This document shows, piece after piece, positions 59,022-61,330 of a DNA stretch of 64,000 nt. The position numbers and the translations under genes were made by a program. The DNA is taken from the IMG/VR virus record IMGVR_UViG_2721755662_000004; one strand, written 5' to 3'. A model generated the notes under the pieces. The model was not told the origin of the DNA and made no database searches. It worked only from the letters and a program-made list of their open reading frames with translations. The stretch comes from a virus (Duplodnaviria > Heunggongvirae > Uroviricota > Caudoviricetes). Numbering within the stretch: the stretch's first letter is position 1; each line of letters opens with the position of its first letter.

Positions 59022-59654
59022 TCAGAATTCAAATTGTCTTGCTCTTAGTTGCGCCAGCATACTTCTGGCCCTGTGCACCGTATAGTTGGCGGGATCAAGT
59101 TTTGCTGCTTCGCGGAGCAATGTGTCGCGAGTCCGGTTGGTTATATGACGAGTTTCGTAGGCCAGATCAAACAGCTTTCCATAGTAATCAGAGTTCAGTT
59201 CTCTCATGACGGGGTATAGCTGTTTACTGAGTTGTTGTGCTTTTTCCATCCAGAGTTGAACGTAGCAGAGCAGGATGATGTCTTCTGCTGTGAATTGAGG
59301 CTGAATATGAGGTTGTGGCGGTATAGCGCTTTTTTCAGCTTCACGGTCCAGAATATCCAATACCCAGCGACGAAACTCTTTTGCTATTGGAGTTCGAGCA
59401 AACATCGCTATTAGGTGAGCGCCGCGTAATGAGAAGATGCGAGTCTCTTGCTTGTCCCCTTTAGGATCGGTCAATTTGACCGAGGCTGTCATACCGTTTG
59501 TGAATTCATCTGCGTGACGGGCATAGATGCGTGTTACCGAGCTTTGATCTGCATATTGTAACGCGCTGGCTATTTGGGGGGCAGACAACCACAGTAGACC
59601 ATCTCGTTGAACGGTCTGGAATTGAACATTGTGGAATACAAGTTGAGTGCTCAT
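59022..59654 (-). CDS. Antirepressor (Bro-N-like N-terminal domain plus ANT-like C-terminal domain)
   Basis: 210 aa; MSTQLVFHNVQFQTVQRDGLLWLSAPQIASALQY; C-terminus related to other ant paralogs. Confidence 0.7.
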   Translation of the reverse strand: MSTQLVFHNVQFQTVQRDGLLWLSAPQIASALQYADQSSVTRIYARHADEFTNGMTASVKLTDPKGDKQETRIFSLRGAHLIAMFARTPIAKEFRRWVLDILDREAEKSAIPPQPHIQPQFTAEDIILLCYVQLWMEKAQQLSKQLYPVMRELNSDYYGKLFDLAYETRHITNRTRDTLLREAAKLDPANYTVHRARSMLAQLRARQFEF

Positions 59655-59908
59655 AGTTTTATGTCCTTTCGATTCGTTCAGATCACCCCGTGTTCAGCAG
59701 GGCGGTCGGGTACTTGAACACCGTCGAAAGTTCGGCCCGCATCCTTAGCCTTACGGCTGTTTTTCGGTATACGCGCTACCCGACCATATCTGAAAAATGG
59801 ACATAAAAAATCCGCATGACTGACGGGCGCGGTTTCCGCTTTCGAAGGTGTGTTCAGCACCATGGAGCGGAATATATCCCCGTTAATGCGGATTTGTCAA
59901 ATCTGGCC
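59655..59908 (-). promoter_or_regulatory. Structured leader C with internal hairpin plus T-run
   Basis: Minus strand: GGATTTGTCAAATC-like box, then hairpin plus TTTTTTATG, then about 150 nt to ant start. Confidence 0.3.
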
Positions 59909-60538
59909 TTAAAACTCGAATTGTCTTGCCCGCAGGCTTTTCAGCATTGGCATGGCCCGCTGGATAACGGAACTTGACATGTCGAGACGTGTTACCTCCC
60001 TCAGTAGCGCGTCTCTGTTCTTCGTCACCATGTAGATGGTCTCAAACGCAATGTCATACAGCTTGTTCGTGTATGAGGAGTTCAGCTCTTTCATAATGGG
60101 ATACAGGTGTTTGCTGATGTCCTGGGCTTTTTCCATCCAGAGCTGCATGTAGCAAAGGAGGATGATTTCCTCGGCTGTGAATTGCGGCTGTGGTTCTGCT
60201 TGTACTGGCTGAATGTTGCGAAGTTTCTTTTCGCACTCGATGAAGTAGCGGCGTATCTGGCGGCCTTTTTCGTTACGTTCAACCATCGCAAGCTCTTTGG
60301 CTGTGTCGAGGGTGAGGTGGTAATCCTTGCGGCGGCGGCCTGGAGTTTTCGCCAAATTTGGCGAAAATAGAATGTAGTCTAAATTTTCTACGAATCCATA
60401 CTCGTTTAGCCTGGCCCGTATCCAGTTAGAAAAATCTTTACCTACCTCTAAAAATCCATGCAAATCACGCGCGTTCACCAGAAGCGTAGGTTCATTTGAG
60501 ATTGTACCTTCAAACACAGGGATGAGTTGAGTGGTCAT
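59909..60538 (-). CDS. AntA/AntB-type antirepressor
   Basis: Start MTTQLIPVFEGTISNEPTLLVNARDLHGFLEV with AAGGAGG SD; C-terminal 98 aa identical to 15794..16459 product. Confidence 0.75.
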   Translation of the reverse strand: MTTQLIPVFEGTISNEPTLLVNARDLHGFLEVGKDFSNWIRARLNEYGFVENLDYILFSPNLAKTPGRRRKDYHLTLDTAKELAMVERNEKGRQIRRYFIECEKKLRNIQPVQAEPQPQFTAEEIILLCYMQLWMEKAQDISKHLYPIMKELNSSYTNKLYDIAFETIYMVTKNRDALLREVTRLDMSSSVIQRAMPMLKSLRARQFEF

Positions 60539-60787
60539 GATGACCTCCTTTGGCTTTTTTCGAGAAATGCCACCACAAGATGTGGTGCCGGGAGGCTCGA
60601 AACGGCCCAAAAGATACCGCGGACTTATTCCCCTTGCGGGTGTTGTATTCGTCGCCCTCCCGACATTGATCGGGGATGTGACCGCACACTGTGCTATCAC
60701 TGAATAACAGGCATAAAAAATCCAACACTGACGGGGTTGGTTTAATCCGCTTTTGGGAGGTTTTCGAGGCCTCGGCGCGGAGTATAG
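60539..60787 (-). promoter_or_regulatory. Structured leader D with internal hairpin plus T-run
   Basis: CCAAC...GTTGG hairpin followed by ATTTTTTATG on minus strand. Confidence 0.3.
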
Positions 60788-61072
60788 TCAGTATTGGACG
60801 CAGTCGTCAACCATCGCAAGCTCTTTGGCTGTGTCGAGGGTGAGGTGGTATTCCTTGCGGTTGTGACCGCCTCTACCTTTTGCTTGCCAATTTTGGCAAG
60901 CAATCACAAAATCTTGATTTTCAACGAATCCATATTCACCCAGCCTGTCCTTGATCCAGTGAGCAAACATTTTACCAATACCAAGAAAAGCGTGCAGATT
61001 GCGAGCATTGCAAAGTAAAACTGGTTCGTTGTTGATGGTTCCATCGAAAACGGGAATGAGTTGATTAGTCAT
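60788..61072 (-). pseudogene. Truncated AntA N-terminal domain copy
   Basis: MTNQLIPVFDGTINNEPVLLCNARNLHAFL... ends after KELAMV where the full-length paralog continues. Confidence 0.5.
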
Positions 61073-61330
61073 AATTATGACTCCTGACGTTTTAGTATTG
61101 ACTGCCACCTTAGTGGGGGGGGGCGGGCTTCAACTACCGCGTCAGACGGCGGAGCGTATTTCCCGAAAGGGTATTGTATTAGGCTCTCTCGACCCGCCAT
61201 TGATATGGCGATACCTGTAAACAGGCATAAAAAAGCCGCAAAGCTATCGGGTGCGGTTGACCGCTGACGTTGTAGTGCGGTCAGTATGCGATAGCTCTGG
61301 CGGATTTGTCAAATCGTGCAGTAACATCCT
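61073..61330 (-). promoter_or_regulatory. Structured leader E with internal hairpin plus T-run; contains G9 homopolymer
   Basis: ATTTGACAAATCC box and hairpin plus TTTTTTATG shared with leaders C and D. Confidence 0.3.

Follow-up and report, generated by a model that had tools for sequence, protein, structure and literature searches.

Three leftward ant-type genes of an Escherichia coli prophage stand behind leaders that probably act as c4-type RNA locks

Genes and leaders of the leftward arm

We analyze a stretch of 64,000 nucleotides (nt) of viral DNA (IMG/VR record IMGVR_UViG_2721755662_000004; hereafter the window), and in it three antirepressor-like (ant-type) genes on the minus strand together with the leaders that precede them. 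The window is identical to positions 2472163-2536162 of the E. coli FORC_043 chromosome. It holds a lambdoid, Stx-phage-like prophage without stx, inserted at ynfG and carrying a podovirus-type structural module. From the integrase at the left end, the order rightwards is repressor/cro/cII, O/P, nin regions, Q, lysis and structural genes; CI of this prophage is encoded at 7820-8527. A leftward gene block at 55.7-61.1 kb, which includes the three ant-type genes, adjoins attR and ynfF; in the circular phage it lies just past attP, downstream of int in the leftward direction. We number the three cassettes M1 (truncated AntA gene), M2 (AntA gene) and M3 (Bro-N gene), and list their parts in Table 1 along with those of two sister modules on the plus strand.

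All three minus-strand genes score above the Pfam cut-offs. The product of the truncated gene, which RefSeq labels a pseudogene, is 65% identical to the N-terminus of the M2 protein (BLASTP). The two full genes have their C-terminal half in common, and P22_AR_C occurs in five of the six ant-type proteins of the prophage, in which different N-terminal domains are thus combined with one C-terminal domain. The antirepressor name of these proteins is an annotation, and their action on a phage repressor is putative. For the M2 gene, an open reading frame (ORF) of 263 amino acids (aa) at 59909-60700 (minus strand) that starts with GTG and runs through the M2 RNA described below is an artefact of a mechanical ORF list; the true start is the plausible and annotated ATG at 60538, behind an AAGGAGG Shine-Dalgarno.

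A first-pass annotation of this DNA had described the genes as a tandem array, one member truncated, with one repeated leader design, and both the Pfam matches and the comparison of the leaders agree with that description. It put the leaders at 230-260 bp; a leader does precede each gene, with lengths of 240, 272 and 254 bp when counted up to the start codon from the -35 hexamer or from the stop codon before it. It also counted six modules in the prophage. There are six ant-type ORFs but five leaders, the two plus-strand genes of sister module 2 standing behind a single one.

The leaders of M1, M2 and M3 and of the two sister modules follow one order: a sigma-70-like promoter, a box b1, a box a1, a hairpin with a run of six Ts (T6), a spacer of 30-55 nt, an RNA of three helices, a box b2, a box a2 joined with the Shine-Dalgarno, and the start codon. 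Set side by side, the five leaders of the prophage have the promoter pattern TTGAC(A/G), 18 nt, TATAyT. The hairpin followed by TTTTTTATG that had been noticed earlier is found in all three minus-strand leaders, with a 5-bp stem and a loop of 9-11 nt. A simple terminator scan of the window does not call these hairpins because of the length of their loops, and we confirmed them through folding and conservation. The M2 b1 box lies in the loop of a GAGG/CCTC hairpin. Between the end of the RNA and the start codon of the ant-type gene, which are 40-50 nt apart, there is no ORF, and a2 overlaps the Shine-Dalgarno of that gene itself.

Table 1. Parts of the ant-type modules and of a neighbouring gene cluster, in positions of the window
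Feature	Position	Strand	Details
M1 promoter-like site	61283-61312	minus	TTGACA 61307-61312, 18 nt, CATACT 61283-61288
M1 palindrome	61303-61315		13 bp, GATTTGACAAATC
M1 short leader RNA	61229-61277	minus	b1 ACTAC 61272-61276; a1 CGTCAG 61264-61269
M1 terminator	61229-61256	minus	CCGCA...TGCGG + T6, then ATG
M1 sRNA-Xcc1-type RNA	61114-61198	minus	helices 61122-61198; Rfam 49.9 bits, E 3e-7
M1 a' and b' of the RNA	61140-61145; 61133-61137		a' CUGACG (hairpin-2 loop); b' GUAGU
M1 b2 and a2	61093-61098; 61081-61089	minus	b2 ATACTA; a2 fused to Shine-Dalgarno CGTCAGGAG, 8 nt before start codon
M1 truncated AntA gene	60788-61072	minus	AntA domain only, 94 aa; Pfam
M2 promoter-like site	60781-60810	minus	TTGACG, 18 nt, TATACT; within 3' end of truncated gene
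M2 short leader RNA	60715-60768	minus	b1 CTCGAAAA 60761-60768; a1 CCCAAAAG 60750-60757
M2 terminator	60715-60740	minus	CCAAC-CCCGTCAGT-GTTGG + T6, then ATG
M2 sRNA-Xcc1-type RNA	60579-60664	minus	helices 60587-60664; Rfam 73.4 bits
M2 a' and b' of the RNA	60606-60613; 60596-60602		a' CUUUUGGG; b' UUUCGAG; 3' tail ACCA
M2 b2 and a2	60557-60564; 60544-60554	minus	b2 CTCGAAAA; a2 + Shine-Dalgarno GCCAAAGGAGG, 5 nt before ATG 60538
M2 AntA + P22_AR_C gene	59909-60538	minus	209 aa, ATG at 60538; Pfam
M3 promoter-like site	59871-59900	minus	TTGACA, 18 nt, TATATT; 11/12 matches
M3 palindrome	59891-59903
M3 short leader RNA	59805-59857	minus	b1 CTGAACAC 59850-59857; a1 TTCGAAAG 59839-59846
M3 terminator	59805-59832	minus	CCGCG-CCCGTCAGTCA-TGCGG + T6, then ATG
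M3 sRNA-Xcc1-type RNA	59696-59785	minus	helices 59704-59785; Rfam 67.7 bits
M3 a' and b' of the RNA	59724-59730; 59715-59721		a' CUUUCGA; b' GUGUUCA
M3 b2 and a2	59690-59697; 59664-59672	minus	b2 CTGAACAC; a2 + Shine-Dalgarno TCGAAAGGA, 9 nt before ATG 59654
M3 Bro-N + P22_AR_C gene	59022-59654	minus	210 aa, ATG at 59654; Pfam
Sister module 1, c4-a1b1/isrK	15542-15629	plus	Rfam
Sister module 1, C4 RNA	15656-15740	plus	Rfam
Sister module 1, ORF6N + P22_AR_C gene	15794-16459	plus	Pfam
Sister module 2, c4-a1b1/isrK	17127-17216	plus	Rfam
Sister module 2, C4 RNA	17242-17325	plus	Rfam
Sister module 2, ORF6N + P22_AR_C gene	17378-18061	plus
Sister module 2, KilAC/ANT gene	18136-18858	plus
sok/hokD	13503-13677		Rfam sok
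Doc-family toxin	14235-14720
RelE/ParE with helix-turn-helix partner	14771-15419

An sRNA-Xcc1-type RNA in each leader

The Rfam family sRNA-Xcc1 (RF02221), named for a small RNA (sRNA), has a match in all three minus-strand leaders; each match lies on the coding strand, past the terminator and ahead of the gene. With the family gathering score at 53 bits, M2 and M3 pass and M1 falls below. The M1 RNA is a recognisable subfamily with a GGUAGUUGA junction, present in several viral contigs. We built our own covariance model (R1) from viral sequences with a hand-set structure of 21 pairs. R1 scores 92.5 bits on M2, 49.8 bits on M1 (E-value 1e-11) and 40.7 bits on M3; in the window it matches these three copies only, with no cross-match to the C4 copies, and on 100 genome loci outside its seed it gives 103 matches.

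The RNA is 80 nt long, with a closing helix around two hairpins. Hairpin 1 carries an AAUACAAYACCC-N4-GGGRAAU element that hardly varies. In this RNA and in the C4 RNA of the sister modules alike, we name the hairpin-2 loop a', and b' the unpaired stretch that joins hairpin 2 to the 3' strand of the closing helix. We checked the fold on 101 distinct bacterial-genome sequences outside the seed. With the caveat that the alignment is fitted to the model and so favours its structure, 95.5% of the cells are paired, versus 81.6% in shuffles and 31-56% when the partners are slid. Compensatory changes on both sides occur in 15 of the 21 pairs, and the covariation score of 0.348 (0.115 in shuffles) is reached by none of 500 shuffles. 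Both the result with slid partners and the count of compensatory pairs speak for a real three-helix fold, in agreement with the curated Rfam structure. RNAalifold on a MAFFT alignment gives only 9 pairs with the closing helix misaligned, and the hand-set structure was used instead; per-sequence minimum-free-energy folding places hairpin 2 inconsistently, and it was replaced by a rule-based parse.

One or two nt past the closing helix there is a conserved CC (an RCC tail; ACCA in M2). This tail resembles the 3' end of a tRNA and would suit RNase P, as for c4, although so far as we can say it is only a resemblance. A homologue of about 88 nt is found as a discrete RNA in Xanthomonas by Northern blot and end mapping (PMC2996969), and an 89-nt homologue in E. 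coli EDL933 has reads comparable to those of CsrB and low ribosome coverage (PMC5331693). These discrete homologues fit a stable, released RNA.

Complementarity of the RNAs to their own boxes

In each module, a' and b' are complementary to both box pairs, b1/a1 upstream and b2/a2 downstream, and they occupy the same structural positions as in the two plus-strand C4 modules. The boxes are different in all five modules: a CGTCAG and b ACTAC in M1, a CCCAAAAG and b CTCGAAA in M2, a TCGAAAG and b CTGAACAC in M3, a TCGAAAC and b TTAGCAC in plus-strand module 1, and a GAAACC or GAGACCG and b TTGGCGT in plus-strand module 2. The two canonical C4 modules, in the nin region, have nearly identical 5' leader hairpins and different a and b boxes.

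RNAduplex gives -21.9, -21.5 and -21.8 kcal/mol for M1, M2 and M3 paired with their own leaders, versus -8 to -16 for non-cognate leaders, and -14.5, -20.0 and -17.7 kcal/mol with their own 5' untranslated regions (UTRs), versus -8.6 to -15.3 for non-cognate ones. In these three modules the cognate duplexes clearly outrank the non-cognate ones. Against shuffled targets, single pairings are modest (z from -1.3 to -3.6), and therefore the decisive evidence is comparative.

Boxes and RNAs covary across 181 loci

We scanned collections of viral contigs and bacterial genomes for the hairpin-1 core AATACAAYACCC-N4-GGGRAAT, which is independent of a', b' and the boxes. After duplicate removal, 87 viral and 94 genomic RNAs could be parsed, making 181 non-redundant loci. 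For each we looked for a perfect complement of at least 7 nt to a' or b' in its own flanks and in the flanks of other loci. In the viral set, a' finds one in its own upstream flank in 56% of loci versus 5.4% in other flanks, and downstream in 49% versus 3.4%; for b' the figures are 54% versus 9.5% upstream and 57% versus 11% downstream. In the genomic set they are 69% versus 4.1% and 37% versus 1.5% for a', and 62% versus 11.6% and 23% versus 2.7% for b'. Own-flank matches are thus about 5- to 25-fold commoner than other-flank ones, and this contrast is conservative because related loci with common boxes inflate the figures for other flanks. Whole-segment RNAduplex energies (-29 kcal/mol own, -24 other) carry a signal that is real and blurred, because G+C-rich stems dominate it; the exact-complement tests on loop and junction were used in its place.

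The positions of the parts recur as well. Promoter matches of at least 10/12 are found in 52% of the viral loci versus 0-2% of shuffles, and the -10 hexamer ends 13-14 nt before b1. The b1-a1 gap is 3-8 nt and this pair lies about 93 nt before the RNA, with a T-run between a1 and the RNA in 58 of 66 loci; the b2-a2 gap is 3-5 nt. From the end of a2 to the start codon the median distance is 9 nt, and from the end of the RNA to the start codon it is 46 nt. The leader has a conserved form of its own, with a b1 hairpin, a1-GCGG, and a terminator whose loop is often CCCGUCAG or CCCGTCAG. In 91 of 99 non-redundant leaders b1 lies in the loop of a hairpin of 4-5 bp whose stem covaries (GGAG/CTCC, GAGG/CCTC, AAGG/CCTT and others). 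These stems, including the one at 60746-60772 (minus strand) of the window, read like Shine-Dalgarno/anti-Shine-Dalgarno pairs. The ordered layout is thus seen again outside this genome, at the 181 loci; such an architecture is far beyond chance.

The T-run, which in the window lies within 59805-59815, 60715-60725 and 61229-61239 (minus strand), is directly followed by RTG well above chance: ATG stands there in 21 of the 41 leaders from viral contigs, and GTG in 43 of the 63 from genomes. These codons have no Shine-Dalgarno, and the ORFs that would follow vary in length. At the corresponding place the two C4 modules have TTTTTTTATG and TTTTTTATTG.

The genes that follow the RNA are of a few kinds. 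Among 71 viral loci the first ORF carries KilA-N (12), AntA (11), Bro-N (11), P22_AR_N (10), Rha (9) or ORF6N (6), often also with P22_AR_C (16) or ORF6C (4). Among 81 genomic loci we find Bro-N (8), Rha (7), the SymE toxin (7), KilA-N (3), ORF6N (3) and AntA (2), and many first ORFs have no Pfam match. The hosts include Enterobacterales, Pasteurellales, Vibrio phages, Xanthomonadales, Neisseriales, Desulfovibrionaceae and some Alphaproteobacteria. Stx2a-converting phages, phage P14437 and the Shigella phages Ss-VASD and 75/02 Stx carry the M2 leader with 99-100% identity, and their records annotate protein genes only. In Xanthomonadales (loci L124, L126, L131, L132 and others) the same layout of leader, RNA and boxes stands before SymE-family genes and many short ORFs without a Pfam match, and in Xylella fastidiosa Temecula1, according to one paper, five Xcc1 copies follow each other in tandem at intervals of about 385 bp.

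These comparisons bear on the published reading of sRNA-Xcc1, by which the RNAs would be trans-acting sRNAs on host genes and their place before ant-type genes would have no regulatory meaning. The Xanthomonas and Xylella literature predicts many host or plant targets, and a homologue is abundant in enterohaemorrhagic E. coli (PMC5331693). However, over the 181 loci the hairpin-2 loop and the junction vary together with the boxes that flank the same RNA, the box nearer the gene lies on the ribosome-binding site of that gene, and in many taxa the genes downstream come from a small group of phage regulators or toxins. We consider it very improbable that host targets account for these loci, while an additional role on such targets is possible.

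The palindrome over the -35 hexamer

The first-pass annotation had pointed to a box shared by the three leaders and to a common regulatory element. The box GGATTTGTCAAATC (plus strand) does exist, at 59890-59903 and 61302-61315, in two of the three leaders, where it consists of TTGACA, the -35 hexamer, and flanking bases; the M2 leader has TTGACG in another context and lacks the box. As a shared operator the element does not hold up, the palindromic box being present in 3 of the 87 viral loci and in none of the 94 genomic ones.

One could still suppose that control is operated by a protein, with the palindrome over the -35 as operator for CI or LexA, the hairpin and T-run as an ordinary attenuator, and the structured RNA as incidental. 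Some antirepressors, for example those of the Gifsy phages, are LexA-controlled, and in M1 and M3 the sequence GATTTGACAAATC is a perfect 13-bp palindrome overlapping the -35 hexamer. But TTGACAA is already a palindrome of 7 nt, leaving only 3 extra pairs to explain, and M1 and M3 share 16 nt at the box by descent. Neither M2 nor either plus-strand module has the box, and the palindrome is not conserved beyond close relatives. A comparison of the leaders with LexA sites, which had been suggested as a check, finds no LexA-like site (CTGT-N8-ACAG with at most one mismatch) in 58900-61600, so that we rejected the LexA or operator reading of the box. Protein control would also leave the covarying boxes unexplained, and we find it hardly credible. 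What the cassettes share is a design and not a signal: each leader has its own c4-like antisense RNA and its own boxes.

Proposed mechanism

In our interpretation, which we think probable, each of the three leftward cassettes is a self-contained RNA lock of the c4 type (as in immI of P1) on its ant-type gene. The steps follow the analogy with c4 of P1/P7, the CI RNA of P4, the CA RNA of N15 and IsrK of Gifsy-1. From a constitutive-looking sigma-70 promoter, the first 55-66 nt of the transcript would present b1 in the loop of a small hairpin, then a1, then a weak intrinsic terminator. Many transcripts would probably end there, giving a short RNA analogous to IsrK or to P4 seqA. Transcripts that read through would hold the 80-nt three-helix RNA, which is probably cut out and accumulates. 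Its a' and b' would pair with a2 and b2 in the 46-nt 5' UTR and, with a2 overlapping the Shine-Dalgarno, the ant-type gene would stay untranslated; transcription may then be cut short. The upstream b1/a1 copy on the terminated leader would compete for the same RNA as a decoy, and the balance of terminated leader, processed antisense RNA and full-length mRNA would set the on/off threshold. Because the a/b boxes and a'/b' differ in every cassette, each gene would have a private lock.

Several observations weigh against this interpretation. The M1 pairing with its 5' UTR, at -14.5 kcal/mol, is matched by 7% of shuffles, and the M2 pairing with its leader taken alone is non-significant (11% of shuffles). 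The leader terminators are weak, with their short stems and long loops. M1 is weak throughout, having boxes of 5-6 nt, an Rfam score below gathering and a truncated gene; it ranks last among the modules in strength and is perhaps in decay. In the literature, sRNA-Xcc1 is seen as a trans-acting sRNA controlled by HrpG/HrpX and with many predicted targets. Homology to c4 is another matter: in 58900-61600 no C4, isrK or c4-a1b1 model gives a match with an E-value up to 5, even as the plus-strand modules do match, and therefore the likeness to c4 is one of design and not of demonstrated descent. Finally, the sequences themselves show the layout, the covarying fold, the complementarities with their covariation over loci, the place of a2 on the ribosome-binding site and the kind of gene downstream, whereas RNA processing, action in trans, repression of translation and the decoy role of the leader are steps that we infer by analogy.

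The same parts could also make up a purely cis-acting RNA switch, in which a'/b' pairs within one transcript with either a1/b1 (on) or a2/b2 (off), with no diffusible RNA and leader termination deciding. All three partners do lie on one transcript within 250 nt, and the read-through mRNA of the isrK locus, an analogous case, has been shown to adopt either an inactive or an active structure (PMC4825925). Yet discrete RNAs of 88-89 nt build up from members of the family, in P1, P4 and N15 the corresponding RNA undergoes processing and works in trans (PMC12197685, PMC3632133), and the conserved closing helix followed by the RCC tail suggests an excised species. We therefore think a switch confined to cis unlikely, and retain the lock by a released antisense RNA.

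One further complementarity crosses modules. The hairpin-2 loop of M1, CUGACG, is the complement of CGUCAG, a sequence in the terminator loop of M2 (60722-60731) and in that of M3 (59812-59822), all on the minus strand. The terminator-loop motif CCCGTCAG is found in 29 of 104 leaders elsewhere, and the terminator loop of M1 itself is CCCGATAGC. At 6 nt, this match could be chance or a cross-module contact; in the latter case, the pairing of the M1 loop with the terminator loops of M2, M3 and many other cassettes could link the modules in a hierarchy.

Relation to known systems

The immI region of P1/P7 (C4 RF01695 and c4-a1b1 RF03163, in clan CL00128) likewise encodes an RNA on the coding strand of the ant-operon leader, with a closing helix around two hairpins, a' in the hairpin-2 loop and b' in the 3' junction. 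It too has two target copies, a1b1 upstream and a2b2 at the ribosome-binding site, and there too few bases set the specificity, different copies being heteroimmune. For c4 of P1/P7 the pairing of a' and b' with a2 and b2 over a ribosome-binding site, together with a further target copy upstream, is established (PMC12197685). Unlike the Xcc1-type RNAs, c4 of P1/P7 lacks the hairpin-1 AAUACAAYACCC-N4-GGGRAAU element, and its closing helix has about 17 bp, versus 9-11 bp in the Xcc1-type RNAs. Immunity region immI of P1 has an icd-like upstream ORF, whereas the minus-strand cassettes have none and a2 lies on the Shine-Dalgarno of the ant-type gene itself.

The Gifsy-1 locus IsrK/orf45/anrP (isrK RF01394), P4 with seqA and CI RNA, and N15 with CA RNA and antC resemble the cassettes in having a short 5' RNA with an upstream target copy and an intrinsic terminator, the read-through being the mRNA of an antirepressor-like gene. 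In Gifsy-1 the terminated short RNA activates in trans the translation of an inactive read-through mRNA for an antirepressor-like gene (PMC4825925), and the P4 and N15 systems are equivalent and have the same parts (PMC3632133). The minus-strand leaders differ in having no coupling ORF of the orf45 type and in not matching the isrK model. In P22 immI (Mnt, Arc and the sar antisense RNA), an antirepressor gene is likewise silenced partly via an antisense RNA on translation initiation. The sar RNA is transcribed antisense to ant, over its start, whereas the RNA described here shares the strand of its gene and pairs through short segments of loop and junction; the minus-strand leaders have no opposite-strand promoter-like site. 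Antirepressors under LexA (of the Gifsy and 186 Tum type) have a LexA box at the promoter, unlike the minus-strand cassettes. We also considered 24B_1/d_ant of Phi24B, in which an RNA of microRNA size is said to control an antirepressor, and rejected it as a different locus, from lom to vb_24B_43, with d_ant near the lysis genes.

The curated sRNA-Xcc1 family has the same three helices, and its Xanthomonas copies have the same layout of leader and boxes, upstream of symE. The published RNA of X. campestris is integron-borne, trans-acting and HrpG/HrpX-controlled, in contrast to our reading of it here as a cis-encoded lock on the next gene. The literature describes sRNA-Xcc1 as a trans-acting, virulence-linked sRNA, places it upstream of an ORF6N gene in APSE phages with no comment on mechanism, and places it upstream of symE in Xanthomonas integrons, "suggesting a divergent regulatory mechanism". 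In the literature that we searched, whose coverage is incomplete, no paper ties sRNA-Xcc1 to c4 or to antirepressors or gives it a local target, and Rfam keeps the family outside the C4 clan. We regard the cassettes as a new structural variant of the c4-type RNA control of P1, P4 and N15, with a function that is read across from those phages.

C4 and Xcc1-type modules stand before like genes, so that both RNA types would guard the same kind of protein in one prophage. RNA immunity in the style of P1, P4 and N15 would come in two or more forms of different structure, two of them together in a single Stx-type prophage. An Rfam family that genome pipelines routinely annotate and that has lately been read as a virulence or inter-kingdom sRNA would gain a likely local job that can be tested. 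Five orthogonal antisense/target pairs in one genome, with hundreds of natural variants elsewhere, would be a catalogue of short, specific RNA regulators. In Stx-type prophages, control of antirepressors bears on induction and hence on toxin release. Cross-induction of co-resident prophages had been suggested for the array; if the RNAs act in trans like c4, matching cassettes in other prophages would be cross-repressed, not cross-induced.

A wider conjecture, which we consider doubtful as a whole, extends this to the entire sRNA-Xcc1 family. It would be a second widespread lineage of c4-like "programmable locks", guarding antirepressor-like regulators and SymE-type toxins in phages, integrons and islands of Proteobacteria. 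Tandem arrays would be mutually orthogonal lock-and-key sets with the short leader RNAs as trans keys, and co-resident or superinfecting phages with matching boxes would repress or unlock each other's ant genes.

Gain and loss of cassettes

The shuffling of cassettes proposed from this one genome is seen in related ynfG prophages, which hold different subsets of two or three cassettes. One has all three. One lacks the Bro cassette, with the junction within the shared P22_AR_C coding DNA, and in another an M1-type leader is joined to a full AntA gene with no truncated copy. The junctions fall in DNA coding for the P22_AR_C domain or for the AntA N-terminus, and this placement indicates that cassettes are gained and lost by recombination inside the shared domain DNA. 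In the window, the truncated gene and the M2 gene have 44 identical bases and diverge exactly at the TTGA of the M2 -35 hexamer. Two RNA copies in one retrieved stretch are found in 7 of 100 viral loci, and thus a three-cassette array is uncommon.

Other features of the prophage

Between the M1 promoter and the truncated ynfG at attR, at 61398-61437 (minus strand), a duplicated ATGCAAAGCTTTGT forms an imperfect hairpin of 17 pairs. The repeat gives a spurious mir-19 match, and it may be a protein-binding repeat of the attP arm. An STnc100 match of 165 bits lies at 20467-20672 (plus strand), between the gene for antiterminator Q, which it directly follows, and one for a SASA-family esterase. 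Stx phages carry the toxin genes stx at this position; this prophage lacks them. Just upstream of the first C4 module there is a toxin-antitoxin cluster at 13503-15419 (Table 1), and a second Hok/Gef gene lies at about 43.6 kb.

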